Below are positions 3,884 to 25,356 of a DNA stretch of 27,657 nucleotides, in pieces. Every line of letters starts with the position of its first letter. Positions within the stretch are counted from its first letter, which is position 1. The notes beneath the pieces were generated by a model. That model did not search any database, was not told where the DNA came from, and saw only the letters and a program-made list of their open reading frames with translations. The translations under genes were made by a program, and so were the position numbers. Source of the DNA: a virus (lineage: Duplodnaviria > Heunggongvirae > Uroviricota > Caudoviricetes); the IMG/VR virus record IMGVR_UViG_2703718778_000008; one strand, given 5' to 3'.

Positions 3884-3930
3884 TTATTGTTTAACAGAGA
3901 ACGGCGGGGATCCCGCCGTGGAGACTGAAA

Positions 3931-4320: not shown

Positions 4321-4478
4321 CCTGTCTTTGCTTTGACTGCATTGAAGATCCCGTTGCGGATATTGCTGTTATTTTTAACTGGCCGCCCGCAGAGATATTT
4401 GCAATGACGCCTGCAGAGGTGGTCGCCTGGCGTGAGCGGGCGGCTGCCAGAAGCGGAAGTCACAATCATGATGAATAA
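3931..4478 (+). CDS. E': Tail assembly chaperone E+E', product of a programmed -1 frameshift
   Basis: Slippery heptamer T_TTT_TTC at 4263-4269 in the E frame; the -1 frame stays open to TAA at 4476-4478 and encodes ...NWPPAEIFAMTPAEVVAWRERAAARSGSHNHDE, resembling P2 E'. Confidence 0.6.
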
Positions 4479-7260: not shown

Positions 7261-7270
7261 GGTGAAAAAG

Positions 7271-7762
7271 ATGATGATGATTTATGGGATGTTTGTGTTT
7301 CAGTTAAGTACCCTGCCGCATCAGCAGGTGGAACAGAGTAAACGCTGGCGACACGTCAGTAATGAACGGGTTAACCGTTCATCCTCCTGGCAGTATATTG
7401 GCTCTGGTGAAGATCACATCACGATGTCCGGTGTGCTCTGTCCGGAAATCACCGGCGGGGAGGTGTCACTGACTGCCCTGAACACCCTGGCCTACACAGG
7501 ATTACCTTGGCCACTGATTGATGGTGTCGGACAGATTTACGGGATGTATGTCATTACGGAAATCAGGACCACCCGTCAGGAGCTGGATCGCTATGGCATG
7601 GCCCGCAAAATTGAGTTCACTGTCAGCTTTCAGCGATGCAATGAAGATCTGCGTGAGCGTCTTCAGTCGGGCTCGGTGGGTGATCTGATGGCAGGATTAA
7701 AAAACAGCGCGTCGTCGGCCCTGTCGTCGGCGTCCTCTGCGCTGTCTGGTCTCATGTTGTGA
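7271..7762 (+). CDS. U: Tail protein U
   Basis: MMMIYGMFVFQLSTLPHQ...GVLCPEITGG...GQIYGMYVITEI... closely parallels P2 gpU; ATG triplet at 7271 after GAGGTGA. Confidence 0.85.
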   Translation: MMMIYGMFVFQLSTLPHQQVEQSKRWRHVSNERVNRSSSWQYIGSGEDHITMSGVLCPEITGGEVSLTALNTLAYTGLPWPLIDGVGQIYGMYVITEIRTTRQELDRYGMARKIEFTVSFQRCNEDLRERLQSGSVGDLMAGLKNSASSALSSASSALSGLML

Positions 7763-7772
7763 AGGTCACTGT

Positions 7773-8360
7773 TCAGGCTTCGGCTTCTTTTCCCCAGCCA
7801 ACCTTATAGTCCAGAATCGCCGCCGTATCGTTCAGGGCGGCGATCTCTTTTTTCATGTTACGCTGGCGAATGTGAATTTCCATCCCTTTGGCAAACAGGG
7901 CTTTTGCGGCTGCATCGCTGAGGGCAATCAGCTCATCAGCAGAAACAGGAACATCGTTGTTCTGTGCATCAGTCCAGAAAAAATCCAGCGGCAGGATCCC
8001 CGCTTTTGCGGCAGCAACGGAAGGCTCAAGGCGGGCCTGCGTTGACTTCCCGTAGTCCCATTTCCTGCCGTTATGTTCAAAGGTGTAACTCGCCGCTTCC
8101 ATCGCATTACGCCAGGCGTTGATTTCGTCGTTTTTCAGGCGTCTGGCGTTTTCCCTGTCAGTGTCGTTTTCCTGGTATTCAGATACAGAGCCGTGATTTC
8201 CTGCTTTCAGTTCGCCCCAGAGTTTTTTGCCGTGTGGCGAGTTGTCATATTCGGTTGCCGTATAGGGCAGCCAGCTCTCCTCCCCTTCAAACTGGATCTC
8301 ACAGTCGATAGTGCCGTCACGGTTATAAGCGGCATTTCTTGCTGATTTGATTGTGTGCAT
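7773..8360 (-). CDS. G: Tail fibre assembly protein
   Basis: Lies immediately downstream of H on the same strand; C-terminal region typical of P2 gpG / Tfa proteins. Confidence 0.75.
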   Translation of the reverse strand: MHTIKSARNAAYNRDGTIDCEIQFEGEESWLPYTATEYDNSPHGKKLWGELKAGNHGSVSEYQENDTDRENARRLKNDEINAWRNAMEAASYTFEHNGRKWDYGKSTQARLEPSVAAAKAGILPLDFFWTDAQNNDVPVSADELIALSDAAAKALFAKGMEIHIRQRNMKKEIAALNDTAAILDYKVGWGKEAEA

Positions 8361-8371
8361 GAGTCTCTCCG

Positions 8372-9712
8372 TCAGGCAATGCGCTCAAATATTCCGATTC
8401 CTGCGCCTGCATAAATGTCAGCGCAGGCCCGCCACGTGCCCGGTGGCCTGCGGTTTGTGTTCCAGTTTTGCATGGATTCATAAAAACTGATTTCGAAGTC
8501 GGAATTAGTCATGCTCATCAGTCTGAGTTTACTGCCCGGGCGGGTATCTCCGGGCGCTATATTAATTCTGGCAGGATATACCCCCTCGGCATCCGTTGCC
8601 GCCAGAATAAAGCTGCCCACATCCCAGAGTGTCCGCTGTGTTTTTGCCTGTGCAGCCTCCAGTGCTTGCCGTGCTTTCTGCCCGGCGTTTTCTGCTGCCG
8701 TCATGGCCGTCTTCACAGCTTTTGGTGTGGCAGCCAGCACTTCACTGTCACTGTCCGTTGCGCTGCTTAGCTGAACAATACCTCGCTCTGTCAGGGAGGC
8801 ATCGCCGGTCTGCGTGAGGGGGAGTATGGCAACCTCCTTCCATTCAGACCACGGCCCGTTGCCGGTGAAGTTACCTGTCACTGTCCGGATAAATTTTCGT
8901 GGTGGATTCCAGGCGGTGTATTCCTGCTGGCAGAATCCCCATGCGCCCATCCTGATGGATAATGATCCGGCTGATGTTACCGGGTAGTGATGTGCTGTAG
9001 TGGCGCCGTTGTTGTTGGGCTGATAGTAGTCACCATGATGTTCAGGTCTTCCCAGTGTATCCAGGTCCACGCTGAGGGCGGCTGTTGGTCTTGTTACTGC
9101 CAGCGCCTTAAGTGCTTTTATTGCTTTGGGTGTGGCTGCCCGGGTTTCATCATCACTGTCGGTTTCACTACTGAGCTGAGTAAATCCCTTACTGGTGGTT
9201 GTGGCATCCGGGTGTTTACCGTTTTGTTCATGCTGCTTTATCATTTCTGCCACGCCAGCCTGTGTTGCCATGGTGGTTGATGAGTCGGCTGTCAGATTTA
9301 CAGAGGCTTCGTTGCTCAGCAGAATCACCATGCGGAATACCTGTTCTCTGCCTGAGCCCTCATCAAGCTGCGGTTTGTAACCTTCCGCAACATTACCCAC
9401 GGCGATGAGTGTGCCTTTGCTGTCAAACAGACCGATTTCGCGGATCCAGAATCCTCCTTCATTCGCAGGAATGATCACTTCGGCGGTTAAAAAACTGGTG
9501 TTTTCCGCGTCACGGCTGACCCTGCTGACCTCGCCCCGCCAGACCTCTTTAACGAGAGCGGTTTGCGTGGCCAGTGGTTCTGTGGGTTTACCGTTACCGT
9601 CTCCGACGGCGATATGTGTCAGCGTGATCTTTTCTCCATCCGGTAACACCGCAGCTGCGAGGGCTGCTGTTCCGGCATTTGTGATAATGGTTTTGTATTT
9701 TGCGGCCATCAT
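8372..9712 (-). CDS. H: Tail fibre protein
   Basis: N-terminus MMAAKYKTIITNAGTAALAAA... and duplicated ...TQLSSETDSDDETRAATPKAIKAL / ...VQLSSATDSDSEVLAATPKAVKTA motifs match P2 gpH. Confidence 0.8.
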   Translation of the reverse strand: MMAAKYKTIITNAGTAALAAAVLPDGEKITLTHIAVGDGNGKPTEPLATQTALVKEVWRGEVSRVSRDAENTSFLTAEVIIPANEGGFWIREIGLFDSKGTLIAVGNVAEGYKPQLDEGSGREQVFRMVILLSNEASVNLTADSSTTMATQAGVAEMIKQHEQNGKHPDATTTSKGFTQLSSETDSDDETRAATPKAIKALKALAVTRPTAALSVDLDTLGRPEHHGDYYQPNNNGATTAHHYPVTSAGSLSIRMGAWGFCQQEYTAWNPPRKFIRTVTGNFTGNGPWSEWKEVAILPLTQTGDASLTERGIVQLSSATDSDSEVLAATPKAVKTAMTAAENAGQKARQALEAAQAKTQRTLWDVGSFILAATDAEGVYPARINIAPGDTRPGSKLRLMSMTNSDFEISFYESMQNWNTNRRPPGTWRACADIYAGAGIGIFERIA

Positions 9713-10335
9713 TACTCCTTGTCCGGTCTGATGGTTACTGTGATGCCTTCATAGGTGACTCCACCCGGGTGGATGTCACCACTGACTGACAGCGGGCTTG
9801 TCAGTTCTGCTGCCGGATATACCACGATGGTTTCCCCGGTCAGCGTGGCCCCGGTTATGCGGGATATCCCCCGTGCAACGTAGGTCATTTTCATGGCGGC
9901 AAGGTGTCGGCTTACCGGGCGAACGGTGGTAATCATTCGCTCCATCTCCTGCCGGGTTTCCTCTGTCAGTCCGCGCTCCGATATGTCAATATCCAGCCTG
10001 AATGACCCCGGCGGATCGTTGTTCTCCCACCATTCTGTAATACTCAGTATCGCGCCGAAGGGCTCCACAGCCCGACGCATGGCGCTGATGGTGCCTTTGT
10101 GGCGGTGAATATGCCACGAGTCACGGATGATCTGACGACGTGCCTCTTCACTCCATGTTTCATCCCAGCGGTCAACGGAAAGCGCCCAGGCAAGCCATGG
10201 CAGCAGATGGGCTGGGCAGGTGTCGGGGTTCCAGAGGGTGTTGATATGGATCGGCAGCTCTGACAGGCGCTGAGCGCCCTGTTCCGAATGATGCAGGAAG
10301 GAGGGCGATGATGGCGGCAGCAGTCGGTTATTCAT
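9712..10335 (-). CDS. I: Baseplate assembly protein I
   Basis: ...LWNPDTCPAHLLPWLAWALSVDRWDETW...EWWENNDPPGSFRLDI... matches P2 gpI. ATG at 10335 overlaps the J stop (ATGAATAA) with AGGTGG upstream. Confidence 0.85.
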   Translation of the reverse strand: MNNRLLPPSSPSFLHHSEQGAQRLSELPIHINTLWNPDTCPAHLLPWLAWALSVDRWDETWSEEARRQIIRDSWHIHRHKGTISAMRRAVEPFGAILSITEWWENNDPPGSFRLDIDISERGLTEETRQEMERMITTVRPVSRHLAAMKMTYVARGISRITGATLTGETIVVYPAAELTSPLSVSGDIHPGGVTYEGITVTIRPDKE

Positions 10336-11224
10336 CGGTGCCACCTGCAGAGATGTTCCGGGATGTGCAGCGGGCTGACTGGGTGTTACTGATCACCACA
10401 TTCTGCGCTGGTTTCTTCAGCTCGACTCGCTGAACGCCCGGTACGTGTAGCGTTGCCATAATGGCAGAGCGGGCCACATCACGCCCTATGGCATTCTGAG
10501 TCTTCAGCCATGTGTCAAGTGCATCTCTGGCGGCGGCAAGAATGGGTTCAGATTCCGGGCCAGGATAAAAATAGAGTACGGCCTCAATATCGTAACTGAC
10601 GATGGTCGCACTCTGTACCGTGAGTCTGTCGGCCAGGGGGCGCACAGTTTCACCATTGAGAGCCCGGCTGACGGTCGCGATTAATTCCGGTGACGCTGTG
10701 CCGTCTCCTTCCGTTGAGAGAATGGAGACAATGACCGTCGCAGGTGACGGACTGGTTGCCCGTGCATCGGCAACAAGACCGCTGGCACTGCGGGCAAAAT
10801 ATTCATATGCAGCAGAGGGGCCTGCGACGCTGAAACCTTCAAATCCGGATTGTGCCCGCAGACGGAACGCGCTGTCGCTCTCCATGATGGCAGCTTCTGT
10901 ATCAGTAGCAGGTTTCAGTTCAAGGCGTTTCGCATTCACGATAGCGGCGAGATTATCCAGGTCTGTGGATACGGCATGGCTGAGCATGCACCCCGCCGCT
11001 GCATCGTTGATCCGCTGACGGAGCAGCATTTCGCGAAAGGCGATGGCCTGAGCAATGATGTTGAGTGGCTCTGATTCCAGCGCAATGGCTGCGCTGACGG
11101 CACTGCGCATGTTTTCAGGGAAGGCATCAATCATAAAGGCCTTCACGTCTTTCAGTATGCTCTCATAATCCAGTGATTCAATGATCTGCGGACGTGGTAA
11201 CTGAGACAGGTCAATTGTCGGCAT
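10328..11224 (-). CDS. J: Baseplate assembly protein J
   Basis: MPTIDLSQLPRPQIIESLDYESIL...GETVRPLADRLTVQSA...HVPGVQRVEL... matches P2 gpJ. Confidence 0.9.
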   Translation of the reverse strand: MPTIDLSQLPRPQIIESLDYESILKDVKAFMIDAFPENMRSAVSAAIALESEPLNIIAQAIAFREMLLRQRINDAAAGCMLSHAVSTDLDNLAAIVNAKRLELKPATDTEAAIMESDSAFRLRAQSGFEGFSVAGPSAAYEYFARSASGLVADARATSPSPATVIVSILSTEGDGTASPELIATVSRALNGETVRPLADRLTVQSATIVSYDIEAVLYFYPGPESEPILAAARDALDTWLKTQNAIGRDVARSAIMATLHVPGVQRVELKKPAQNVVISNTQSARCTSRNISAGGTDE

Positions 11225-11576
11225 TACTCCCCCTCAGCGGAATGCTCATCTGTACGGGCTGCATTGTGCGGGTGAGCACGCCTGAGATGGCCAGCAGAGC
11301 GCGTCCGTCAGGCAGCCAGGTGATATCCACCCGGTTAATGGCGATCCGGGGCTCCCACTGTGCGAGCGCCATAACCACCGCGCTCATGCACTGCAGACGT
11401 GTCACGTCGTTTTGTGGCGCATCGAGCAGTTCAGGCAACAGGCTGCCATACTCTCTTCGCATGATGCGACTGCCGCGCGGGGTGGTCAGAATATTGTTTA
11501 CAGAGTGGCGGAGGTGTTCTGTGTCACTGATGCATCCGCTACCATGCGGGTTCATGCCTGTGCATACCGGTGTCAT
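11211..11576 (-). CDS. W: Baseplate wedge protein W
   Basis: ...TPRGSRIMRREYGSLLPELLDAPQ... (gpW-like); overlaps the V stop (ATGA). Confidence 0.85.
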   Translation of the reverse strand: MTPVCTGMNPHGSGCISDTEHLRHSVNNILTTPRGSRIMRREYGSLLPELLDAPQNDVTRLQCMSAVVMALAQWEPRIAINRVDITWLPDGRALLAISGVLTRTMQPVQMSIPLRGSNADN

Positions 11577-12169
11577 TTCGGCCCCCCTGTCATGCTTCCG
11601 CCGGACTGAACACCGTTATGAACGTGCGTATGCACGGTAACACCATTTGAGAGTAAGTTTCCGTTACTGTGTGTGATATCCCCTTTCATGGTGCCACCGT
11701 CAGTCAGTTCAAACGTCCTGGCCTTCAGATGTTTTGTGCACTCTACGGCCGGTGTGTCCAGGGTAATACGTGTTTCCGCAGAGATCTCTGCGGTTTTGAT
11801 TCCTTTCACCGTCAGCGCGCCTTTTTCTGCATCATAGCGTATCTCGGCACCGTCAGGTGCAAGGAGTATCACTTCATTCTGTTTTGTGCCGGGCGCCGGG
11901 TGTTCTTCGCTGTAGAGACTGCCAGCCACAACGGCCATTTCAGGACTGCCGCCCGGGCAGAGCAACAGCACCTGTTCACCGGGGGAGGGGGGCAGCCAGA
12001 TTTTAAACGCCCCGGCGCGTGTGCAGTTCCAGCGGAGCCAGTCCGTTGTCAGTCCGCCGCTGGTAACGCGAATGCGCCAGTTTTTCAGATCCACCTCCGA
12101 AACGACGCCGGTGCGGACCATGTTTTCCAGCAGTCGCATGATTTCAGCATTCAACGGGTGTTTCTCCAC
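11573..12169 (-). CDS. V: Baseplate spike / assembly protein V
   Basis: ...TGGLTTDWLRW...GEQVLLLCPGG...LSNGVTVHTHVHNGVQSGGSMTGGP matches P2 gpV. Confidence 0.85.
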   Translation of the reverse strand: MEKHPLNAEIMRLLENMVRTGVVSEVDLKNWRIRVTSGGLTTDWLRWNCTRAGAFKIWLPPSPGEQVLLLCPGGSPEMAVVAGSLYSEEHPAPGTKQNEVILLAPDGAEIRYDAEKGALTVKGIKTAEISAETRITLDTPAVECTKHLKARTFELTDGGTMKGDITHSNGNLLSNGVTVHTHVHNGVQSGGSMTGGPK

Positions 12170-12795
12170 AGGTTGTTGATAATGATTTCCGTCACTTTCT
12201 GTCTGTCGGCTTCACTGAATCCCAGCAGTTCGCGTTGCGGATAGCGGACGGCATTACCGGCAGAGACCAGTGACACTTCGCCGAACTGATGAACGCGGGC
12301 AATGCGGGCTGCGCGGCCTTCAAATCCCACGCTGACGCCGCCGGGATCGGTTTTTACCTTCAGAAAGCGGTTTGTCCGAAGCTGCTCAAACATGGGTGGA
12401 CGCTTAATGGCGCTCTGCGTTCGCCTGCGGGTGTCAATTTCCAGGTATTCTTCAATATCGGCTTTGTGGAACGAGCGTATTCCCCGGCGCTCCGTGTCGT
12501 AACCGGTGATCATGGGGCCGTACCGGCCGGTTGTTGTCCGCCAGTTTTTCAGTCGTCTCACCTGAGTGCCGTTCCAGATGAACACCACACCTGCCTGGAC
12601 ACGGAATACACGTTTTTTACGGGCGGGCCACCGGTTACCGTCCGGTGATTGTTGCGAACGTATACGCTTTTGTTGCGCGGCGCGGACAGCCTGACCGACA
12701 GCACGTGCTGTTTTGTTTATACCGGCAGCGGACAGACCACTGAGGATCTCCTGAAAGAGACCGTCCAGTCTGTGCAGGTCATCCGGAGCCATCAT
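12151..12795 (-). CDS. S: Tail completion / virion morphogenesis protein S-like
   Basis: Position between R and V. Start moved to the internal ATG at 12795 (MMAPDD...) so that it overlaps R only briefly. About 214 aa, longer than P2 gpS. Confidence 0.65.
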   Translation of the reverse strand: MMAPDDLHRLDGLFQEILSGLSAAGINKTARAVGQAVRAAQQKRIRSQQSPDGNRWPARKKRVFRVQAGVVFIWNGTQVRRLKNWRTTTGRYGPMITGYDTERRGIRSFHKADIEEYLEIDTRRRTQSAIKRPPMFEQLRTNRFLKVKTDPGGVSVGFEGRAARIARVHQFGEVSLVSAGNAVRYPQRELLGFSEADRQKVTEIIINNLWRNTR

Positions 12796-13246
12796 TCTGA
12801 CCCCATGTGACATCTTCGAGGGTGACGTGCCATGCTTCCAGGGCCCGGCTGACAGGCGGCTCTCCGATGTGTTCTGCGTGAACAGTGCCATCATCATTAC
12901 GGCGGATAATCACCCGCTCCCATACCGGGATTTCCAGCAGGATATCGGTGCTGTCGTCGTCATTGATGGCAACAGAAAATTTGATATCCCTGTTTTTCTC
13001 CGGATTAAGCAGGAGATCAGGCTGATTGCGGTACAGCCAGCGCATCAGCGGCACCATCAGTTCATCGAGATCCTGCGTGAAGTCCATGACAAAGATCCCA
13101 AGCGTGTAACGGTAAAGATATGAGGGGGATTCGCCGGTCGTCTCAATGCCTCCGTTATTCACATACACAGTGAATTTCTCCGGGTTGGCGCGACACCATG
13201 GGCAGGCGTCAGTCATGGCGTCGCGCAGGGTGTTAATTTTCAGCAT
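12779..13246 (-). CDS. R: Tail completion protein R
   Basis: MLKINTLRDAMTDA...RYTLGIFVMDFTQDLDEL...NQPDLL...EPPVS... parallels P2 gpR (155 aa). Confidence 0.8.
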   Translation of the reverse strand: MLKINTLRDAMTDACPWCRANPEKFTVYVNNGGIETTGESPSYLYRYTLGIFVMDFTQDLDELMVPLMRWLYRNQPDLLLNPEKNRDIKFSVAINDDDSTDILLEIPVWERVIIRRNDDGTVHAEHIGEPPVSRALEAWHVTLEDVTWGQNDGSG

Positions 13247-13261
13247 GCCCCCTCCTGTGTG

Positions 13262-13435
13262 TTATGGCATGTTCTGGTTGTTCTGTTGTGCAGACTTCTG
13301 ACTGATTTTTTCAGCGGCGCGCTCGTCAATTTTTCGCTGAAAATAATTTCTGATAACACTGTAACCGCCGCTGATCAGATACAGCGCGCAGACTGCAGTA
13401 CAGAAATACAGCATGATCTGATGAATGAATAACAT
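13262..13435 (-). CDS. Small single-pass membrane protein (57 aa), function unknown
   Basis: MLFIHQIMLYFCTAVCALYLISGGYSVIRNYFQRK...; ATG at 13435 with GAGGTG upstream (the track's start is a TTG). Lower GC than neighbours. Sits where P2 has lysA-type accessory lysis genes, but no similarity asserted. Confidence 0.35.
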   Translation of the reverse strand: MLFIHQIMLYFCTAVCALYLISGGYSVIRNYFQRKIDERAAEKISQKSAQQNNQNMP

Positions 13436-13580
13436 AATCACCTCACACAAATGATTGACATAACGATGTCTGGCGTTTTAAAAAAATGAATAACAATAAT
13501 AAACACTCTCCATAATTCCTCTTGCGCTCCCGTCAGGTATCTTCTCCTCTAAGTCTTGCCTGCCGGGAGCCTCTTTTTTC

Positions 13581-15626
13581 TTATGCGGCGTTGCTGTTAT
13601 TGATATCCACCGTCACATACTCAATCAGCACGGGGTAGGTGTCCTGGTTACTGGTGATATCCGTGATCAGCAGTTTGTCGTTATCCAGTCCTGCCGCCGG
13701 GCATTTCGCCAGATTAAAGGCCGCCTGGGTCTGACCGTTGATGACCGGTGTCACGCTGATGCTGTTATTTCCGGCAAACCGGAACACCACGTTGTGCCAG
13801 TTATGATTAAATGCCCCGAAGGTTCCCAGTTTTGCATTCTGTTGTTTGTGCTGCATCAGATTCAGGTTTGCGCTGTCGCTCTGGATGAAGAAGGCGGCCA
13901 GCATATCGTTTCCTGCGCTGCCTTCCAGAACAACGTTTTCAGGTAGCTGAGAAACCGGCCAGTGCAGAGCCATGGCGAAGCGGTTTTCTGCCAGCTGAAC
14001 ACCTTCCGGGATTTTGAAACGAAAGGCAATTTCCCCGCCTTTCTGAAGTAATTCAGCTGCTTTACTTGCAGGCACATCGTGGGCGATTTTCCAGGCTGTT
14101 TGTTGCCCCTGGACTTTTTCCACTCGCATGGCTTTACCGCTCTGAGCAGCAGAGTCATTTACGACGGAGGCTTTTCCATCTGCCCCTGTCCAGCCCTGTT
14201 CTTTCAGTTTCCCTTCCTGTGCGTCTGCGCGATAAGCGACGGCCGTTGTTCTTGCCGGTGATGACTGCGTACCTGCGCCCGGCTGAGGTGCAGGTGTGTA
14301 GGGCTGCGGGCTTTCCGTGGTGGTGCTGTCTGAACCGGCCGTGGCGGGAGGTACTGCGACCACGCTGAACGGTGCGGGTGCACCTTTCAGGAAGGCGACG
14401 GTCTTCCCGGCATGCATCAGGATCGCCGTTGCCAGGCGGTCAGAAATAATGCCGCGGCGGGCCCATGAACTGAAATGCGTGGCGCGATCTGAAGAGGTCC
14501 AGTTTCCGTTACTACGGGATGCAGCACCGTAATAACCGGCTTCTGCCAGGTCAGGATCTTCGGCAGGCAGGTTTGTTGGCGTGTTAGCACCTTTCTCATC
14601 GGTCATCAGGGGCACAAAATAAATTTTTTGCGCTTCTTTGTTCTGATATGCACCGTAAACCACCGGGTACTGAGAGGTATATTGTTGTTTCCAGATATAG
14701 GTGGTATCGCCGCAAATCCAGGGAACAAGTGATGCGTTGCCTCCGGTGCACTGTGCAGCATATGCGCTGAGATCGGCGCGGAACTGATTCACCATGTTCA
14801 GGAATAATTGCGGGTGCTGTGCGTATGTTGCTGATTTCAGATCAAACTCTCCCAGCATCCAGACCACGGATAACAGGACGTTTTTGGGGTTTTTATCCAG
14901 CGCGGCTTTTGTACGGGTAAGCAGATCGTTATACAGCGGTTTGCCGACGCCCCACAGGGATGATTCGGCCGTTGCTCCTGAAGATTCACTGAATGCCCCC
15001 TCAGCGCCGGAAGTAAGCGCTGACCCTCCACGACAGCAAGGTACCAGGAGGATCCCTGCATTTTTCGGGATAAACGCCAGTAATTTTTTGGCAATATGTA
15101 AACCCTGTCCGACGCAGCCATACTGACCTTTTGACAGATCGGCGTTCGGATGATTAAGGCTGCTCATATCCTGTACATCATGGAGACAGTGATCTGCCGG
15201 AATAATATCGTTATAGGTACATGCAGCGCCGCCCGGTGTTACCGTACTGCGACGCGCTAACTGTTTAATTCGTGGATCAGGACTGTCGAATGTATCGGGT
15301 AATGGCAGCCCCTCACCGTATGCCATGCCATTGGACTGACCAGCCAGTGGCACCACATAATAAAACTCTGGCTCAGTTGTGTGTCCAGTGTCGTATCCGT
15401 CGGTAGTGCCCGGTACGGGGTTTTCCTCGCCTTTTGGTACCGGAATGGCTGATGGCAGGTCTCTGTCAGTGACCAGTGCCTGCATCAGGTAAAATGGTGC
15501 TCCCGGCTCTGATGCTGAGACAGGTCCCCCAAGAAGTCCCCATCCTTCCCTGAGCATGGGCGCAAGTTTTTCGGCAAGTTCCTTGTTCGTCATTGCCGTC
15601 ACAAGCTGATAATGTTTCGGTACCAT
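13581..15626 (-). CDS. DUF1737 / sialate-O-acetylesterase (SASA, SGNH-like) domain protein, NanS-p-like, with a C-terminal extension
   Basis: N-terminal ...HYQLVTAMTNKELAEKLAPMLREGWGLLGGPV...YLMQALV (DUF1737-like), then ...YYVVPLAGQSNGMAYGEG... (the GQSN catalytic motif of SASA esterases). Start taken at ATG 15626 (GGAG upstream). Confidence 0.65.
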   Translation of the reverse strand: MVPKHYQLVTAMTNKELAEKLAPMLREGWGLLGGPVSASEPGAPFYLMQALVTDRDLPSAIPVPKGEENPVPGTTDGYDTGHTTEPEFYYVVPLAGQSNGMAYGEGLPLPDTFDSPDPRIKQLARRSTVTPGGAACTYNDIIPADHCLHDVQDMSSLNHPNADLSKGQYGCVGQGLHIAKKLLAFIPKNAGILLVPCCRGGSALTSGAEGAFSESSGATAESSLWGVGKPLYNDLLTRTKAALDKNPKNVLLSVVWMLGEFDLKSATYAQHPQLFLNMVNQFRADLSAYAAQCTGGNASLVPWICGDTTYIWKQQYTSQYPVVYGAYQNKEAQKIYFVPLMTDEKGANTPTNLPAEDPDLAEAGYYGAASRSNGNWTSSDRATHFSSWARRGIISDRLATAILMHAGKTVAFLKGAPAPFSVVAVPPATAGSDSTTTESPQPYTPAPQPGAGTQSSPARTTAVAYRADAQEGKLKEQGWTGADGKASVVNDSAAQSGKAMRVEKVQGQQTAWKIAHDVPASKAAELLQKGGEIAFRFKIPEGVQLAENRFAMALHWPVSQLPENVVLEGSAGNDMLAAFFIQSDSANLNLMQHKQQNAKLGTFGAFNHNWHNVVFRFAGNNSISVTPVINGQTQAAFNLAKCPAAGLDNDKLLITDITSNQDTYPVLIEYVTVDINNSNAA

Positions 15627-15636
15627 AGTGACTCCG

Positions 15637-15912
15637 TTATTTTTCATGAGTGTTCATTCGTGCTGTCCGCTGCCGCTCCAGCCCGGCAATGGCGGCTTTA
15701 TCGGCATTACAACTGTCCAGGGCATCTACCAGTCGGTCTCCCCAGTCAGCCACATCAGCCCATATCATGTGTTGCGGCAGCACCGGTACCGGCGTCTGTC
15801 TGGTCAGACTTTCCGGCACGCTCCCGCAAATGACGCCGGTTTTCAGCGGCGCTGGCGTGTTGTTGCAGGCTGTCAGCAACATCAGCAGGGGGAGAAGTGC
15901 GTGCGCACTCAT
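15637..15912 (-). CDS. lysC: o-spanin (Rz1/LysC-like outer-membrane lipoprotein), nested in and extending past lysB
   Basis: MSAHALLPLLMLLTACNN...: signal peptide with lipobox LTAC. Lies in a different frame overlapping the 3' part of lysB, as in the P2 lysB/lysC arrangement. Confidence 0.6.
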   Translation of the reverse strand: MSAHALLPLLMLLTACNNTPAPLKTGVICGSVPESLTRQTPVPVLPQHMIWADVADWGDRLVDALDSCNADKAAIAGLERQRTARMNTHEK

Positions 15913-16180
15913 CCGCCTGTAAGTTTTTCCGCATCGTTTCACGTCGTTCTTCCCCTCTGGCTGCACGCTCCTGATCTTCGCGCCGGATAGCGGCCAGCGC
16001 TGACTGTGTCTCCGCCGTGGCCTTAAGCAACTCCCGGACGGTCGTATTGCTCTCTTTCACGGCTTTTTCCAGCGCTTCATAACGGGTGCTCTCCTGACCT
16101 GAGCGATAGGCCCGGATGACCACCATTGCCTGCAGCGAAATGGTCAGCAGCAGCGCACAAAGGATAATGTTCAGTTTCAT
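15755..16180 (-). CDS. lysB: i-spanin (Rz/LysB-like)
   Basis: MKLNIILCALLLTISLQAMVV... N-terminal transmembrane anchor followed by a charged, probably coiled-coil periplasmic region; start overlaps the K stop (ATGA). Confidence 0.6.
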   Translation of the reverse strand: MKLNIILCALLLTISLQAMVVIRAYRSGQESTRYEALEKAVKESNTTVRELLKATAETQSALAAIRREDQERAARGEERRETMRKNLQADECARTSPPADVADSLQQHASAAENRRHLRERAGKSDQTDAGTGAAATHDMG

Positions 16181-16728
16181 GGCTGCGCTCCCGCGTCTTT
16201 CAGGCACCAGTTCTTAAAATCATTCCGGCGGTTAACCAGTCCCTGCGTGCGCGTTCCGCCACTGTTCACAAAATCTGTCAGCCGGTAACACATGAGGCGC
16301 CATTGCCGTGTCTGCGCGTGTTTCCAGATGGTGGTGCGTTGCGGCGTGCCGTTTTTGTTTTTAAACCACATCAGATTCCGGCAGCCCAGGTTAAAGGCGG
16401 CGTCCGTCATGGCTTCGAATGCAGACTGCGGCATCTGCTGCCCCCTGAAATTCTGTGTGATGCAGTTCTCAGCGCGGCGCATATCGTTGATCCACCGCCC
16501 GGCCACTTCCTCCTGTGTGTACAGGCGGTTTTCCACGTTACCGGTGGATCCGCATCCGACCGTACCGACCCCCACCAGATCACGGTAGGGTCGGGCCCGG
16601 CACTCCTCCCATGTGGCAATTTTGATTTGTGCCTCGCGGGAGGTTCTCAGTTCTCCGGGAGCCAGGGAGATCCCCAGCGCCACAATGGCGGCCACGGCGT
16701 AACGCTTAGGTCCGGCCATCGTGCTCAT
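16177..16728 (-). CDS. K: Endolysin, GH24 (T4-lysozyme-like) family, possibly SAR-type
   Basis: ...WEECRARPYRDLVGVGTVGCGSTGNVE... matches the GH24 lysozyme catalytic-region pattern; N-terminus YAVAAIVALGISLAPG is weakly hydrophobic and Ala/Gly-rich. Confidence 0.8.
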   Translation of the reverse strand: MSTMAGPKRYAVAAIVALGISLAPGELRTSREAQIKIATWEECRARPYRDLVGVGTVGCGSTGNVENRLYTQEEVAGRWINDMRRAENCITQNFRGQQMPQSAFEAMTDAAFNLGCRNLMWFKNKNGTPQRTTIWKHAQTRQWRLMCYRLTDFVNSGGTRTQGLVNRRNDFKNWCLKDAGAQP

Positions 16729-16990
16729 CCTGCTTCAGAAGCATCATTGCCCGGCGCTCTGCGTCGTTCAGCTCCCTTCCTTCTGACTGCATAAGGATTT
16801 TTTCAATCAGTTCGTTGCGCCTTGCCTGGGCGATCTCCATCCTGCGGCGGTGAAGCCAGGCACGAAGCAGTGACAGCGTTCCCAGCACAAAACCGGCCAC
16901 GGCAATTTTTTCGCTCAGCGTCATCACGCCGATACCGGCTGTCGTCACTGACGCCCAGAACGTGATGTGATCACAAAGCCGCTGAAACAT
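16706..16990 (-). CDS. Y: Holin
   Basis: About 94 aa with hydrophobic helices (ITFWASVTTAGIGVM, IAVAGFVLGTLSLL) and a charged C-terminus; position between X and K. ATG 16990 with GGGGGTGAG upstream. Confidence 0.7.
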   Translation of the reverse strand: MFQRLCDHITFWASVTTAGIGVMTLSEKIAVAGFVLGTLSLLRAWLHRRRMEIAQARRNELIEKILMQSEGRELNDAERRAMMLLKQDEHDGRT

Positions 16991-16992
16991 TC

Positions 16993-17193
16993 TCACCCCC
17001 ACAACTGGATCATTTCACGCCGGGTCTGCCCCTGCAGCTCCGGCAGCTCCACTTCCTGTCCGGCATGCAGAAACATGACGGCTGAAATCCCCGGATTGGC
17101 GGCCAGTACCGCCTCAGTCACCCCCTGCGTGGTGCCGTAATGGCGCTGACAGAGTAAATCGACGGTGTCACCGTCCAGAGCCATTACTTTCAT
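16993..17193 (-). CDS. X: Tail protein X (LysM-like)
   Basis: MKVMALDGDTVDLLCQRHYGTTQGVTEAVLAANPGI...GQEVELPEL matches P2 gpX; start overlaps the L stop (ATGA). Confidence 0.8.
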   Translation of the reverse strand: MKVMALDGDTVDLLCQRHYGTTQGVTEAVLAANPGISAVMFLHAGQEVELPELQGQTRREMIQLWG

Positions 17194-17687
17194 CAGACCA
17201 GCTCCGCATAAATGCGGGTGACACCGCGTATGTCTGATATTGCCCAGCGGGCATCCCGCCACAAATCCTCAACCTGCATGTCCAGCGCGTCAGCCCTGCG
17301 GTCGCCTTTATCGGTGGTATCCACATCCCGGGTGCGCTCCAGTACAAACGCGCGGGTGAGTGCGAAAACGGCCCTGCGGTAGCGGTGGACGTGTACACTC
17401 TCTCCGTTCACCTGCGTGGCCGGAACGTCAGCCAGTGAGGCCGCGCCTTCAGCCATCCGCTCACGTTTCCAGAGCTCCAGTTCGGCGATCACATGGGCGA
17501 CCGCTTCCGTTGCTGCATGTAACAGACGGGTTGTTGTTGTCCTCCCCGGAATGCGGGAAGCCAGGCGAATTTCATGCAGTGAGATCGCCGGCCAGAAGTC
17601 ACCCGCGCTCACCATGGCGTCGCCGTCATCGGTGTCGGTGGTATCTGTGTCAGCGCTGTTCACGCGGGGTCTGGCTATCAGACTCAT
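17193..17687 (-). CDS. L: Head completion / stabilisation protein
   Basis: Size and position between M and X; sequence consistent with P2 gpL. Confidence 0.75.
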   Translation of the reverse strand: MSLIARPRVNSADTDTTDTDDGDAMVSAGDFWPAISLHEIRLASRIPGRTTTTRLLHAATEAVAHVIAELELWKRERMAEGAASLADVPATQVNGESVHVHRYRRAVFALTRAFVLERTRDVDTTDKGDRRADALDMQVEDLWRDARWAISDIRGVTRIYAELV

Positions 17688-17791
17688 GCCTGTCTCCGTA
17701 AAAATCAGGCGGTGGGCAACCGGTAAAAAGAACGCGAAGCCTGTTCAGATCACCGGTTGCGCCGCCTGCCGACGAGGTGCGGTTCGTTAAA

Positions 17792-18589
17792 TCAGTTTGT
17801 TTTGCGCGCGGCTTTTTTCTGGCTGGCAGCGCTTTTCTTTTTTGCGCTGCTCTTTTTCCCGCCGGTGGTGGTTTTCCTGCCCGTTGTGGATGCAGGCACC
17901 ACCTGATTTCCGTCTGCCAGTTTCCTGACCGCGCGCTCCAGCGTGGCAATTTCACGCTTCACTCCCGAAGCCGGATTGATCCGCATGGCTTCACGTAACA
18001 GGCTCAGCGACAGACGCAGATCATCGGGAGAGGAGGAGGCGCGGCGGGAAAATGCGCGTGCCTTGTGCAGTTTTGACCTGACCTGGTCCGGCATATCCTG
18101 CTCACTGACCAGGTGGTTCAGCTCATCAAGCATGGCGGTGTACACAGACAAATCCGCCTCGCTGTCCGTTGTGGCCTGCGTCAGAACGGCGTCAGTAATC
18201 TCTTCAGCCAGTACCGTGGCGGCGTCACGGCCAAAGTTATCCGGCAGCGCCAGACCATGGCGGATCACGTACTCCCCGATACGCAGTGCCAGCGGGTAGT
18301 CACGGCAGTCAATGGCCCACACCATCATGGTGGTGATGACCTCATCCTGGCGTCCGCTGTCTCCAGCCAGGGTGCCTTCAATCCACCCTTCAAAGTCAGG
18401 CAACAGATGTTTTTTAAGCTCTGCCCTGGCGACGTTTGACTGAATACCCTTCAGCTGCATCTGTGCCAGCCTTAACTGGTGAAGGACCTGTTCATGTGCG
18501 GTTCTTTCCCGTTGTGTTTCCCGGGCGTTCATGGTCACCCGGTTGCGGGCCACCGCCTGTTGCACATAGCGTTGTGCCGGTGTCAGCAT
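17792..18589 (-). CDS. M: Terminase endonuclease (small) subunit
   Basis: 265 aa ORF in the gpM position of the O-N-M-L head operon, with a Lys/Ser-rich basic C-terminal tail. Confidence 0.8.
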   Translation of the reverse strand: MLTPAQRYVQQAVARNRVTMNARETQRERTAHEQVLHQLRLAQMQLKGIQSNVARAELKKHLLPDFEGWIEGTLAGDSGRQDEVITTMMVWAIDCRDYPLALRIGEYVIRHGLALPDNFGRDAATVLAEEITDAVLTQATTDSEADLSVYTAMLDELNHLVSEQDMPDQVRSKLHKARAFSRRASSSPDDLRLSLSLLREAMRINPASGVKREIATLERAVRKLADGNQVVPASTTGRKTTTGGKKSSAKKKSAASQKKAARKTN

Positions 18590-18629
18590 TTCTCAGCTCC
18601 TGTTAACGGGCGCGGCGCGCCCGTCCGGG

Positions 18630-19730
18630 TTATGCTTCGGGTTGCGGCTGTCCGCTTTCGGCGTTGTTGTCCGGATCTTCACCTGCGAAGGTGATCCCCT
18701 CAATCAGCGCGCATTTTCCGTAGTCTTCCACCACGTAGCAGTCATTCATGGACTGGTAAGTCGCGATACGGTTGTATTCCGGCTCCTCGCGAATGAAACG
18801 GCGCAGTGAGCCTTTCTGGAAGTAGATCGACAGGTTTTTCAGCGACGTGATGAGCATGGCGTCTTTCGGGAAGTACGGCGCAAGATACGTCTGAAGACCA
18901 CCGACGGTACGGGACGCCACAATCAGCTGCCCGGCAACAAGCTCAGTGTTCGGGTTGGTGGTGCTGATGGCGTTAATCATGGGAAGACGCAGTGTATTGA
19001 ACAGATCCCGCCCCATCAGTACGACCAGATCCGGTGCGTCCTTATGCCATTCATCCAGCACGGATGAGCGGATGTCGTGCACCATGGCATCCGGGTTACC
19101 ATAGTCACCTTTTGCCACCAGTTTGTTTTCATCATCGCGACGGGTCAGGGTCATCCCTTTAACCACGCGGGTGGCAGCCTTGTCGCGGATGTGTTTCAGC
19201 CAGCCCGGGTTGACGTCCTGCAGGAGAGGGTTGGTGGCACGATCGGAAATCAGCGCGTGTGACTCCCCGTTGAAACCAATCATGATTCGATCCAGGGCTA
19301 CCTGGCGGGTGATTTGCGCGCTCAGCAGTTGCTGAAAGTTTTTCTGGCTGCTCCATGCGTCAATCTGTGCGTAGCTGATGAAGGTATCGTAGTTCACCTG
19401 CTCGCAGCGGTAACGGCGTGCATCCAGATCAGCAACTGATGCAGGATTGCGGCGTTTCACTCCGTCGCTCGTTGCGTTCGTGCTGGCAATGGGGCCGCTG
19501 GTGTCAATCAGGACTTTTTCACCTTCCTGGTCATCCACACCGATAAAATTGATTTCCTGTAACAGTCCGGCGCTTTCCTTGATGGCGTTCTCCATCTTCT
19601 GCTGAATGGATGGATCCACGCTGAAGGTTTTACCCAGGCGCTCTGTTGTGATACCAGCCAGCGATGCCTGCTGAATCATATAGCGTTCCAGACTGTCACG
19701 TCCTTCACGGGAAAGGGATAAACGGGCCAT
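18630..19730 (-). CDS. N: Major capsid protein
   Basis: 366 aa; position between O and M; sequence strongly reminiscent of P2 gpN. Confidence 0.9.
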   Translation of the reverse strand: MARLSLSREGRDSLERYMIQQASLAGITTERLGKTFSVDPSIQQKMENAIKESAGLLQEINFIGVDDQEGEKVLIDTSGPIASTNATSDGVKRRNPASVADLDARRYRCEQVNYDTFISYAQIDAWSSQKNFQQLLSAQITRQVALDRIMIGFNGESHALISDRATNPLLQDVNPGWLKHIRDKAATRVVKGMTLTRRDDENKLVAKGDYGNPDAMVHDIRSSVLDEWHKDAPDLVVLMGRDLFNTLRLPMINAISTTNPNTELVAGQLIVASRTVGGLQTYLAPYFPKDAMLITSLKNLSIYFQKGSLRRFIREEPEYNRIATYQSMNDCYVVEDYGKCALIEGITFAGEDPDNNAESGQPQPEA

Positions 19731-19747
19731 AAATTACTCTTCTCCTG

Positions 19748-20584
19748 TCAGAATTCAGCCAGTGTCTGGTCAGTGCCGCCAGCGGAAGTAAAACGCTGCT
19801 GTGGATCGGCATCCTGGTTTCTCAGTTGCGCTTTCAGTGCTGCAAGCTCGAGACTGAGCTCATCCAGCGCCGTTTTGTCGAGGGCATGTTTCTGCTCCAG
19901 AGTGCTGAAACGGTCGATAAGATCTGCATGATCGGATGCGATGTTTTCCACAACGTCGCGCAGCTGGCTGAACTGCTCGCCATCCGCTGTGCGTGTTTTG
20001 CTGATGAGTGCCATGACGCGGCTGAACCACTGACGGCTCTCTTCCGTTCGCTGTTCTGTGGTGGTAAGCATCTCTGCTTCCATGGCGACGGTGAACATGG
20101 GGGGTTCTGTTGTGCACTTACTGAACTGCATGATGCTGGCGCGTTGCTGTGCGGCAAACTCCAGGCGTTCAGTGCCCAGACTTGCTGGCGTGTCGGTCAT
20201 TGCCAGACCCACAATGTAAGGCCCCTTGACGGCGTCCAGCTCAGGCAACATCTCAATGCTCGAATACACTTTTTTCCCGTCAGCAATCATGTTTTTCATG
20301 CGGTCGGTGGGTTCAATTTCGGCATATAACGCTGTACGCCCTGCCAGTTTCCCTTCGGTGATTTCATCAGTTGACAGAGCGATCAGATCACCCACTGCGC
20401 AGAGTTCACTGGATGGCCACATCGAAAGGACGTGCTCAATGTTCACCCGGGAGGCGTAAACGGACGGGTCATAGTTTTCTGCGGCCTGACGCAGCATTTC
20501 ACCAGAAATTTCACGTCCGTCGATGGTTGAACCGGAAACGGCAACGCGAAATTTTTTGCGCTCTGGCGTGTTTTTGCTTCCCAT
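19748..20584 (-). CDS. O: Capsid scaffolding protein
   Basis: gpO-like ORF upstream of N. Start at internal ATG 20584 (MGSKNTPERKKFRVAVSG...) with GGAG upstream. Confidence 0.8.
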   Translation of the reverse strand: MGSKNTPERKKFRVAVSGSTIDGREISGEMLRQAAENYDPSVYASRVNIEHVLSMWPSSELCAVGDLIALSTDEITEGKLAGRTALYAEIEPTDRMKNMIADGKKVYSSIEMLPELDAVKGPYIVGLAMTDTPASLGTERLEFAAQQRASIMQFSKCTTEPPMFTVAMEAEMLTTTEQRTEESRQWFSRVMALISKTRTADGEQFSQLRDVVENIASDHADLIDRFSTLEQKHALDKTALDELSLELAALKAQLRNQDADPQQRFTSAGGTDQTLAEF

Positions 20585-20739
20585 GGAAATTCTCCATAAC
20601 CTGGTCGTTTTTCCCATGATGGCGGCAGATAACGGTGTGTCTCAAGGTGCTTAAGTTGTATGGCGACGGGGACAACGCGGGCTGGTATCAGGCGGTATTG
20701 CTGAGGCTTAATCTTGCCCTGTTAATGTCAGGGGGTGCA
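20585..20739. promoter_or_regulatory. Divergent late promoter region between O and P (expected PO / PP, Ogr-dependent)
   Basis: Non-coding gap between divergent head and terminase operons; contains a partial dyad TGT-N13-ACA (about 20657-20675). Confidence 0.45.
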
Positions 20740-23587: not shown

Positions 23588-24091
23588 TTAACGGAATGCG
23601 GATGGCGTTCTTCTTTGCAGCTTGCTGATAATATGCATCTTCATACTGTTTACTATCGGCAGCCATTCCCTGTCACCGTCTCCGTTGATGACCACGCGAA
23701 TGGAGGTATCATCTTCCACGCGAACCCGAAGAGATACACCGTCTTTTCCGACGGAATGTAACTCCATTGCCAGGACTATGTTTACCGACTCTCCTTCATC
23801 GTGTGAGTCAACCCATGTTCTTACAGCCATCCGGAATATGTTATCTGTGTCGGTTGCAATCATATTTACCGGAAATGGCCTGAAGTCCCGATCGTTTCTG
23901 CACGGAAACCCCGTATCAACGTAACGATGATGCTCGCCGTCTTTGTCTTCCCATGTCTCTGAAGGCAATTCCAGCCACTGCTCATAAAAAGCAACCAGCT
24001 TTTCAGCCTGATTGCGCAGAATCCCTGTAACCTCCCGCCTCGCGTCCCGGCTCTTTTTGTTTGCCAGGTACAAATCGCGAAAATGGCTCAT
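23588..24091 (-). CDS. Hypothetical protein (167 aa), accessory hotspot gene
   Basis: Strong RBS (AAGGAG 6 nt upstream of ATG 24091). Acidic, no transmembrane segment, no motif I can assign. Confidence 0.6.
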   Translation of the reverse strand: MSHFRDLYLANKKSRDARREVTGILRNQAEKLVAFYEQWLELPSETWEDKDGEHHRYVDTGFPCRNDRDFRPFPVNMIATDTDNIFRMAVRTWVDSHDEGESVNIVLAMELHSVGKDGVSLRVRVEDDTSIRVVINGDGDREWLPIVNSMKMHIISKLQRRTPSAFR

Positions 24092-24711
24092 GTCGCTCTC
24101 CTTTGGTCTGTTTATGCCAGCCTGTATTCTGCGCTCACCTCATATTGTGCGCAAGTTTTCACCCGTGAATGACTGATACTTTAAATTCTATTAACTTTAT
24201 GATTTCAGTGATTTTTGTCTCTCTTTTTTATCCCGTTCGTCACGTCCGTTTCCCTCCCGATCTCCGACCTCGCCAGACGCAATCAGACGCATTCTGACGG
24301 CCTGTTTCCCTGACCATGTTTTGATGTGGTTTTTCAAAACTGGCTTCACTGCGCGCGTATCACGCGCAATACGACCCCAAATAAAGCAACCTGCCTTCCA
24401 CCCCTCAATTCGGGCGCCCTTCCCTCGTCGCCTGCGCGCTGCAATTGCCTCGTTTTTCGTGCACCGTGCAAAGTGGCTTCAGCCCGCGCCGTTACTGGGC
24501 TGAGTGGGGATGAAACACATAAGAAAAATTGTGCAATTTCGTGCACTTTTGTGCAGTTTGAAACGGGTATCTGTTTGACACTGGTACTTACTTTGCGCTA
24601 ACTTTACTCGACCAGAAATTTCAATGAATCGGATGAGGTTGTTTGTCATACGACCTCGGTTAGCTAGGTTGCCTTAATCAAAAGGCATGTTTGATACTGG
24701 AGGAGGTTAAT

Positions 24712-24747
24712 ATGAATAAAGCATTTGACGAATTTGATGGATTCTGA
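24712..24747 (+). CDS. Candidate leader peptide (11 aa, MNKAFDEFDGF)
   Basis: Near-perfect RBS GGAGGAGG (24699-24706) 5 nt before the ATG; followed 20 nt later by an intrinsic terminator. Confidence 0.3.
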   Translation: MNKAFDEFDGF

Positions 24748-24766
24748 ATGTGTTAACCTCGATAAG

Positions 24767-24795
24767 GCGGAGACTGATCTCCGCCTTTTTTATTG
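24767..24795 (+). terminator. Intrinsic terminator / candidate attenuator immediately upstream of the hotspot gene at 24806
   Basis: GGCGGAG (24767-24773) / CTCCGCC (24780-24786), loop ACTGAT, followed by TTTTTTATT. Confidence 0.65.
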
Positions 24796-24805
24796 GTAAA
24801 GAAAT

Positions 24806-25309: not shown

Positions 25310-25324
25310 TTTATTTCTTGCATT

Positions 25325-25351
25325 AGAGCGAGGTTATTGGTGCCTCGCTCT
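25325..25351. terminator. Stem-loop between convergent genes, candidate terminator
   Basis: AGAGCGAGG (25325-25333) / CCTCGCTCT (25343-25351), 9-nt loop. Confidence 0.4.
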
Positions 25352-25356
25352 TTAAA

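Follow-up and report, generated by a model that had tools for sequence, protein, structure and literature searches.

A putative sialate O-acetylesterase of the NanS-p type as a mosaic, apparently resident late gene of P88-like prophages in Escherichia coli

The viral DNA considered here is IMG/VR record IMGVR_UViG_2703718778_000008 (Caudoviricetes), a stretch of 27,657 nucleotides (nt) referred to below, in its full length, as the window. Its minus strand carries at 13581..15626 an intact gene (681 codons plus stop) for a product of 681 amino acids (aa) that resembles the NanS-p sialate O-acetylesterases of Shiga toxin (Stx) phages. The gene lies in a late region that is P2-type by both PHROG and Pfam matches. 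In minus-strand order, the genes for scaffold, capsid protein gpN (18630-19730), small terminase (gpM) and gpL are followed by X, holin, lysozyme, a DUF2570 spanin, lysC and the esterase, after which come a 57-aa open reading frame (ORF) of the DUF1378 family and then R, S, V, W, J, I, H and G; the portal and large terminase genes lie on the plus strand. Directly upstream, the gene of a lysB-like i-spanin of the DUF2570 family (15755..16180, minus strand; phrog_214, PF10828) overlaps lysC, which encodes an Rz1-like o-spanin (15637..15846, minus strand; phrog_456, a weak match to PF23793, and the RefSeq annotation in the related locus L006) and whose stop codon lies 10 nt before the start of the esterase gene. 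Downstream, the tail completion gene R (12779..13246, minus strand; phrog_65, PF06891) starts 15 nt past the stop of the DUF1378 ORF (13262..13435, minus strand; Pfam DUF1378 with E=2.7e-27, phrog_494). Homology to phage P88 resumes exactly at the start of R, the blastn alignments to P88 and to a prophage of the type found in sequence type 131 (ST131) running from 13246/13247. In P88 no gene separates R from the spanin gene, the site being empty, and in P2 lysC overlaps R with nothing between the two, so that the original prediction, which was made from the letters of the window, was correct in stating that canonical P2 has no gene at this place.

Among the minus-strand ORFs of the window there is one long frame at this locus, 13581..15647, which includes an upstream in-frame ATG at 15647. 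This codon is unlikely to be the start because it overlaps the stop codon of lysC. The ATG at 15626 is preceded by a GGAG Shine-Dalgarno sequence with a 5-nt spacer, and its methionine is the first residue in PHROG, tblastn and public gene calls alike, which makes the predicted coordinates of 13581-15626 exact. The full-length protein matches phrog_143, a family of unknown function, with E=1e-294, whereas a search of NCBIfam gave no match. A defence-system reading was dropped, as PADLOC gave no match for either the esterase or the DUF1378 product.

Three domains joined by two linkers, all of them minus-strand encoded, make up the product. At its N-terminus, the DUF1737 domain (aa 1-58; 15453..15626) belongs to a subtype confined to the P2 lineage, with the motif ASEPGAPFYLMQA, and is matched by PF08410 over aa 4-53 with E=1.9e-7 and a score of 31.3 bits for the full protein or 37.3 bits for the domain alone, the curated cut-off being 24. 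A first linker (aa 59-84; 15375..15452) is predicted to be disordered, with a predicted local distance difference test (pLDDT) value of about 25 in the AlphaFold2 model. The SGNH/SASA catalytic domain follows (aa 85-405; 14412..15374), with the GQSN motif at aa 96-99, a match to SASA (PF03629) over aa 163-287 (E=2.1e-9, above the curated cut-off) and an alignment of aa 84-404 with the chromosomal NanS/YjhS structure, PDB 3PT5 (E=5.5e-119). The second linker (aa 406-459; 14250..14411) is rich in proline, threonine and serine, is likewise predicted to be disordered (pLDDT below 50 for residues 416-457) and is the most variable region of a five-sequence alignment (A2). The C-terminal part (aa 460-681; 13584..14249) is a lectin-like jelly-roll domain, matched by DUF6645 (PF20350) over aa 527-643 with E=9e-40, again above the curated cut-off, and aligning at aa 460-676 with the phi24B NanS-p's C-terminal domain, PDB 6YP6 (E=8e-60). 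The AlphaFold2 model has a mean pLDDT of 68.7; its C-terminal beta-sandwich is confident and its alpha/beta core partly so, and the linkers at residues 51-83 and 416-457 come out as disordered. The N-domain is modelled, at low confidence, as a strand (6-11), a helix (14-26) and a further strand (45-50). The DUF1737 fold consists of one helix and three antiparallel strands, and the PDB copy searched contained no DUF1737 chain.

Catalysis by NanS depends on Ser19 and His301 and involves no catalytic aspartate, Gln18 being part of the oxyanion hole (PMC9063846). In the 3PT5 alignment, these three residues (Gln18, Ser19 and His301) correspond to Gln97, Ser98 and His384 of the window protein, which are invariant in alignments of five (A2) and 34 (A4) sequences, and counting from the same alignment gives the core an identity of about 62% to chromosomal NanS. 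By every sequence-level criterion the product is a NanS-p-type enzyme, and its esterase activity can be inferred from this core identity and the conserved catalytic residues. The architecture foreseen from the letters, DUF1737 followed by an SGNH/SASA core with GQSN and a C-terminal domain that could bind carbohydrate, is borne out by Pfam, where both the DUF1737 and SASA profiles match above their cut-offs, and by the two PDB structures, the C-terminal domain being lectin-like as in 6YP6. The likeness to the NanS-p family, for which the original prediction had argued, holds as well.

The known NanS-p proteins, such as L0105/z1466 of phage 933W and vb_24B_21/gp84 of phi24B, have the same DUF1737-SASA-DUF6645 architecture, and a comparison with 341 phage records gives a full-length identity of 54-58% to the typical proteins of Stx phages; one lambdoid allele reaches 86%. 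They also share with the window gene a DUF1378 ORF downstream, an adjacent lysis cassette and a place in a late transcription unit. Their carriers, however, are lambdoid phages, whereas the carrier in the window is a P2-like myovirus prophage. The catalytic domain, which is of the SGNH type II, can be aligned over its whole length with chromosomal NanS (YjhS) and keeps the GQSN block, but NanS is a single-domain protein encoded in the nanCMS operon and has neither the DUF1737 nor the lectin-like domain.

The source element can be recognised from its sequence as an E. coli P88-like prophage (Xuanwuvirus-type, Peduoviridae). Its architecture is that of phage P88 (genus Xuanwuvirus, Peduoviridae), with the FI-U tail block inverted relative to H-G and followed by D, ogr and hok/gef, an inversion that P2 does not have. 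In the strain STEC17-183 the prophage adjoins serS, and its end carries D, ogr and two hok/gef genes. In the window, the block of sheath, tube, E, tape-measure and U genes occupies 2178-7762 on the plus strand, opposite to the H-G and head-lysis genes at 7773-20617 on the minus strand. Beyond the portal gene there is an island of low GC content (24400-25500; 0.38-0.44 against about 0.55 elsewhere) that contains a DUF4760 ORF of 167 aa (24806-25309) and is adjacent to an unannotated ORF, also of 167 aa (23588-24091); it may be another cargo site of the prophage.

Esterase genes at the lysC-R site are a regular feature of such prophages. They are found there in 375 of 5,426 complete E. coli genomes, ST131 included, a count in which the lysC-R esterase junction had to be present with at least 80% coverage. 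The allele of the window, carried for example by the strains STEC17-183 and LZSFT34, occurs in 12 of the 5,426 genomes, with an identity of 98.7% or more over the 4.1 kb that surround the gene and with several human Shiga toxin-producing E. coli isolates among the 12, and the 90% protein cluster to which the window protein belongs holds 744 member sequences. The best phage matches of the N-terminal 84 aa come from P2-like myoviruses (50% identity) and not from Stx phages; these matches, vB_EcoM-705R2, vB_EcoM-569R5 and a P88-like ST131 prophage, have a DUF1737-led esterase exactly at the lysC-R site. The same esterase-DUF1378 pair occupies the same site in a sister P2-like prophage, L127, in which the N-domain is 90% and the remainder of the protein 76% identical to the window. 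The esterases of vB_EcoM-705R2, vB_EcoM-569R5 and ST131 (WP_000202148.1), annotated merely as hypothetical or DUF6645 proteins, agree with that of the window in site, domain order and DUF1737 subtype, with identities of about 53% over the full length, 64% over the first 417 aa, 46% in the N-domain and 32% in the C-terminal domain. They differ in that no DUF1378 ORF follows them and no lambdoid-like payload tract is present, both of which the window has. The esterase therefore appears, as judged by this distribution, to be a resident late gene of P88-like E. coli prophages and not a one-off insertion. In the P88-like prophages L113, L118, L121 and L126 the esterase ORF is truncated (218-286 aa), and the gene is thus sometimes decaying. 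Among GTDB species representatives, two scans for patterns of the P2-type N-domain detected neither a relative nor a P2-type DUF1737 gene standing alone, and these scans did not show any taxonomic breadth outside E. coli and Shigella; with the N-domain alone as query, a large protein database returned only its own cluster.

The context is that of a late operon. The order O-N-M-L-X-holin-endolysin-spanins-R-S on one strand is that of the P2-like late O operon, which in the P2 annotation extends through S. Between the divergent genes P and O, at a distance of about 80 nt upstream from the O start, a pattern search located a TGT-N12-ACA dyad (20657..20674, no strand assigned) that is a candidate Ogr-dependent late promoter element. 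Such dyads are not above chance in the window (3 found, 6.6 expected), and therefore only the position of this site counts. Consensus scanning of the gene strand from lysC to R gave no sigma-70-like promoter or terminator-like site, these scans being simple consensus scans with site counts at the level of shuffled sequence. The esterase is thus best read as an internal member of a late O-type operon and not as a classic moron, as the original prediction had called it, because of the 10-nt and 15-nt gaps at its two ends and the lack of a promoter or terminator of its own. As would be expected of a moron, the gene is absent from close relatives in that the sites in P88 and P2 are empty; many P88-like relatives, on the other hand, have theirs occupied. 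The position had also been compared with that of nanS-p in Stx prophages, supposedly just downstream of the lysis genes. Annotated lambdoid and Stx phages have the order Q, (stx), nanS-p, DUF1378, DUF826, holin, endolysin and Rz, which places nanS-p between Q/stx and holin, upstream of the lysis cassette, whereas the window gene comes after the spanins and before R. The two positions are therefore not equivalent, and are alike only in adjoining lysis genes and in lying within the late transcript.

Within the resident gene pair there is a recombinant tract. Positions 13377..15375 on the minus strand are 94.0% identical at the nucleotide level (blastn over 2011 nt) to a lambdoid copy in E. coli 2012EL-2448 (locus L005), and this tract of about 2.0 kb sets in with the first residues of the catalytic core and ends at about codon 20 of the DUF1378 ORF. 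Compared with the product of L005, aa 85-681 of the window protein are about 96% identical and aa 1-84 about 28%, the 5' breakpoint lying at the end of linker 1. A three-way sliding identity profile of the window, L005 and L127 crosses twice: outside the tract the window matches L127 at 74-86% and L005 at 25-53%, whereas inside it is closer to L005 (mostly 90-99%) than to L127. Accordingly divided is the DUF1378 ORF, of which the first 20 or so codons match L005 and the remainder matches L127. The tract can be read from these profiles as a gene-conversion-like patch inside the resident gene pair. The payload of the window, that is its catalytic and C-terminal domains, is 85% and 72% identical, respectively, to that of the P2-type L127 and so is nearer to it than to most lambdoid payloads, and the direction of the 2-kb exchange cannot be read from the domain-wise identity matrices. 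The module exchange between phage lineages that had been proposed is thus supported by the 2.0-kb tract, but only for the payload, the N-domain being specific to the P2 lineage.

The contrast between N-domain and payload extends beyond the window. An IMG/VR scan with full-length alignment returned 572 relatives, of which the best 80 are covered by the following statements on loci. None of these best 80 has P2 markers or the N-domain subtype of the window, and those loci with enough flanking sequence show lambdoid markers; at least four DUF1737 subtypes and an unrelated N-terminal module of about 115 aa occur among them, all joined to the core just before 'EPEYY.VV.AGQSN'. Conversely, a scan for P2-type N-domains found the DUF1737 subtype with 'EPG.P[FW]YLMQA' in P2-like surroundings in 36 of 36 loci, each with P2-family gpN, gpL and spanin genes upstream and a GQSN esterase fused to the domain, and with R and S following wherever the contig extends and the locus is not a hybrid. 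The P2-type domains comprise seven distinct variants, all bona fide DUF1737 by Pfam, in which the stretch PG.P.YLMQA is invariant despite an overall identity of about 40-60%. N-domains of P2-type loci are 40-60% identical to one another (90% for the sister) and 21-45% identical to lambdoid ones; in the domain-wise matrix that of the window is 90% identical to L127 and 36% to the lambdoid L005. The catalytic and C-terminal domains do not cluster by backbone, as can be seen from the window and L005 (96% and 96%) or from the P2-type L092 and the lambdoid phage 1717 (81% and 70%). In these comparisons, DUF1737 subtypes follow the phage backbone, and the catalytic and C-terminal domains cross between P2-like and lambdoid phages.

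Further arrangements of the same payload were observed. The module of about 115 aa ('MSDSKWKMLSAMPGEF...'), which has no Pfam match and is unrelated to DUF1737, is joined at that same point to the esterase core in L082 (8695-10749, P0082), L053, L056, L058, L059, L063, L065, L071, L073-L079 and L086. In L082, baseplate-like genes, tail-fibre genes and a Pin/Hin-type invertase gene immediately precede the esterase gene with this module, and in L073 DUF1378 and an integrase gene come after it. These loci are a third phage context for the same payload. Among lambdoid loci of the IMG/VR set L011-L090 the DUF1737 subtype is partly linked to the downstream terminase/portal module, an observation not used as evidence here. 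The sample, 26 loci with 7.5 kb or more of downstream sequence, is small and not phylogenetically independent; in it one head type has subtypes B and D in 7 of 8 loci, and the lambda-like head type together with one further type has subtype A in 12 of 12 typed loci.

The esterase gene is also found at the join of hybrid prophages. The loci L100 (8000-18162), L112 and L116, from three independent assemblies, combine head and lysis genes of the P88-like kind and an esterase of P2 type (93% to the ST131 type) with a lambdoid holin-lysozyme-Rz-terminase region, the join following right after the esterase stop codon (in L100 at about 10879-10965), and the lambdoid part of the L100 type is up to 95.5% identical to L069. 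As the joins lie at the 3' end of the esterase gene, this gene acts as the place where unrelated prophages cross over, and the loci point to recombination of P2-like with co-resident lambdoid prophages by way of a gene common to both.

The DUF1378 ORF that follows the esterase, both in lambdoid phages and in L127, has a hydrophobic N-terminal stretch (by eye a probable membrane helix) and a charged tail. It accompanies the esterase beside lysis genes in either context, before DUF826 and holin in lambdoid phages and after the spanins here, which suggests a role related to lysis. The two ORFs are separated by a structured spacer of 145 nt (13436..13580, minus strand) within the tract common to the lambdoid copy, in which a GC-rich hairpin directly after the stop codon is succeeded by an AU-rich hairpin and a run of seven U residues (U7); it folds better than shuffled sequence (z=-2.8). 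The hairpin with the U7 run is a caveat to the negative result of the terminator scan. Genes of the Pas small RNA have been reported to adjoin the sialic-acid esterase gene in lambdoid prophages in a 2026 preprint, and the spacer might hold a related small RNA or an attenuator, but Rfam (E<=1) gave no match over 12900-16300 and hence no known small RNA in the spacer.

How the product might act is suggested by work on the lambdoid relatives. Published NanS-p enzymes are active on 9-O-acetylated sialic acid (Neu5,9Ac2) and on mucin, confer a growth advantage on enterohaemorrhagic E. coli (EHEC) and are induced with late genes. The phi24B protein gp84, a NanS-p, has been described as a virion protein whose DUF1737 domain occupies, as a hexamer, the pores of certain capsid hexons, with Tyr42 as its anchor, and whose enzyme part is later cleaved off (preprint 10.64898/2026.04.10.717836). 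The lambdoid L005 copy has an N-domain of this gp84 type (GYGAEF...EGSISSP). The hexon-centre decoration domain of gp84 and the N-domain of the window have in common their Pfam assignment to DUF1737, for the window with a predicted strand-helix-strand, and presumably late expression with head genes. We know of no decoration protein reported for P2. The Hoc protein of phage T4, unrelated in sequence to the DUF1737 decoration domain, offers a further comparison. It is cited as a precedent for adherence to mucus (preprint 10.64898/2026.04.10.717836).

Taken together, the explanation we prefer, with a probability of roughly 70% for the whole, is that of a resident, mosaic late gene for a NanS-p-family esterase that is released at lysis, acts on mucin and docks on the capsid. 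The gene would be transcribed late, along with head, lysis and tail-completion genes, from an Ogr-activated O-type promoter. Its product would leave the cell only at lysis, since there is no obvious signal peptide (the N-terminus being judged by eye), and would then, with the lectin-like domain as a guide, remove 9-O-acetyl groups from the sialic acids of mucin glycans. On the model of gp84, the DUF1737 domain would dock the enzyme on the phage's own capsid, which would explain why the payload can be exchanged but the N-domain remains matched to the backbone. A gain might fall to the virion through its behaviour in mucus, to surviving sibling lysogens that use the de-acetylated Neu5Ac, or to both. 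The enzymatic and late-expression steps can be inferred from strong homology and from gene position, and docking on a P2-type capsid through the lineage-specific DUF1737 is probably involved, going by the likeness to phi24B. The more general view, that DUF1737 is a backbone-matched capsid adaptor and esterase and lectin an interchangeable payload across unrelated temperate phages, is more tentative and on the whole doubtful; under it, P2-like myoviruses, lambda-like siphoviruses and phi24B-like podoviruses would each keep an adaptor subtype fitted to their hexons, and recombination, at the point where the catalytic core has its conserved start, would trade the enzyme cassette among them.

Several points weigh against this explanation. 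The anchor loop around Tyr42, which lies in the 'GYGAEF' stretch of gp84, is not conserved in the window, whose distinct subtype, found only in P2-like phages, has 'EPGAPFY' ('SEPGAPFY' opposite 'TAGYGAEF'); the aromatic residues Phe45 and Tyr46 lie three to four positions downstream of the anchor position. The SISSP-type cleavage site, which in gp84 comes after about residue 54-57, has no counterpart in linker 1 of the window, where no SSP was found. The step of capsid tethering derives from one preprint on a podovirus with a T=9 capsid, from which that of P2-type phages differs, and the pLDDT of the modelled N-domain is low (40-60). The P2-like copies are known from sequence alone, from which their activity, expression and presence in virions are predicted. 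The tracking of the backbone by the N-domain could reflect linkage alone, because crossovers need homology, which the core offers and the diverged N-domain does not. The promoter and terminator scans and the dyad count are weak, for the reasons given with them, and the gene is dispensable for the phage, as P88 is without it and some P88-like copies are truncated.

A different account would make the gene a newly inserted lambdoid NanS-p moron that acts by lysogenic conversion and allows the lysogen to use O-acetylated sialic acids, as the original prediction had favoured. The 94% identity of the payload tract to a lambdoid copy, a DUF1378 partner typical of the lambdoid interval from nanS-p to holin, a dip in GC content relative to the flanks and the published growth advantage of EHEC NanS-p on Neu5,9Ac2 would all fit such an event. 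However, the junctions of 10 and 15 nt within the late operon and the failure to find a promoter or terminator of its own do not suit a moron, and the N-domain, both flanks and the 3' part of DUF1378 match L127, which already has the gene pair. A fresh insertion also agrees poorly with the esterases already at the site in the 375 genomes; the direction of transfer cannot be read, the window payload being near that of L127 as well, and a protein with no obvious signal peptide would reach its substrate only after lysis. This account is therefore unlikely. The role in host benefit for which it was proposed remains plausible from the published work on NanS-p, late expression and the reported capsid binding of DUF1737 point to a virion-associated or lysis-released enzyme, and the nutritional gain published for EHEC populations agrees with an enzyme set free by lysis.

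It is quite improbable that the product is a virion enzyme directed at bacterial glycans, namely O-antigen, colanic acid or a polysialic-acid capsule, where it would aid adsorption or prevent re-adsorption to debris. This possibility has been raised explicitly in a review (PMC8065619), and presumed late expression with virion genes, the DUF1737 reported on capsids (preprint 10.64898/2026.04.10.717836) and the third phage context, in which another N-module carries the same payload directly after tail-fibre and invertase genes, would accord with it. The core is nonetheless about 62% identical to NanS, which has been shown to act on Neu5,9Ac2, NanS-p enzymes take mucin sialoglycans as substrates, and an enzyme mounted on the capsid would, unlike one on the tail, be poorly placed to process a receptor. 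That the gene only hitch-hikes or is decaying, and at present serves no function in the prophage, as its absence from P88 and the truncated copies in L113, L118, L121 and L126 might suggest, is scarcely credible given an intact ORF, catalytic residues and about 200 other columns invariant across homologues, an arrangement at least 98.7% identical in 12 complete genomes, a cluster of 744 member sequences and a DUF1737 loop motif kept across P2-type variants that are otherwise about 50% identical.

NanS-p proteins have been discussed almost wholly as products of accessory genes of Stx and other lambdoid phages that help EHEC to use the sialic acids of mucin as food. Taken by itself, the gene is an ordinary representative of a family already known, with abundant database entries whose names say little. 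In the literature searched, which did not take in all work on NanS diversity, NanS-p is described only from Stx and non-Stx lambdoid prophages; the regular presence of the esterase in P2-like prophages, including that of ST131, the DUF1737 subtype specific to P2-like phages, the gene's mosaic make-up and its part as a recombination bridge between prophages were not found there. By the present analysis the NanS-p family is a regular late gene of P2-like prophages, including those of the pandemic clone ST131, and the common esterase gene a bridge for recombination between otherwise unrelated prophages in pathogenic E. coli. Together with the reported binding to hexons, this provides a concrete and testable model of an exchangeable glycan-modifying enzyme displayed on virions. 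If the adaptor view is true, the product would be the first decoration protein of P2-like capsids and, with an esterase at the site in 375 of 5,426 genomes, would represent a widespread mucin-modifying activity displayed by virions.

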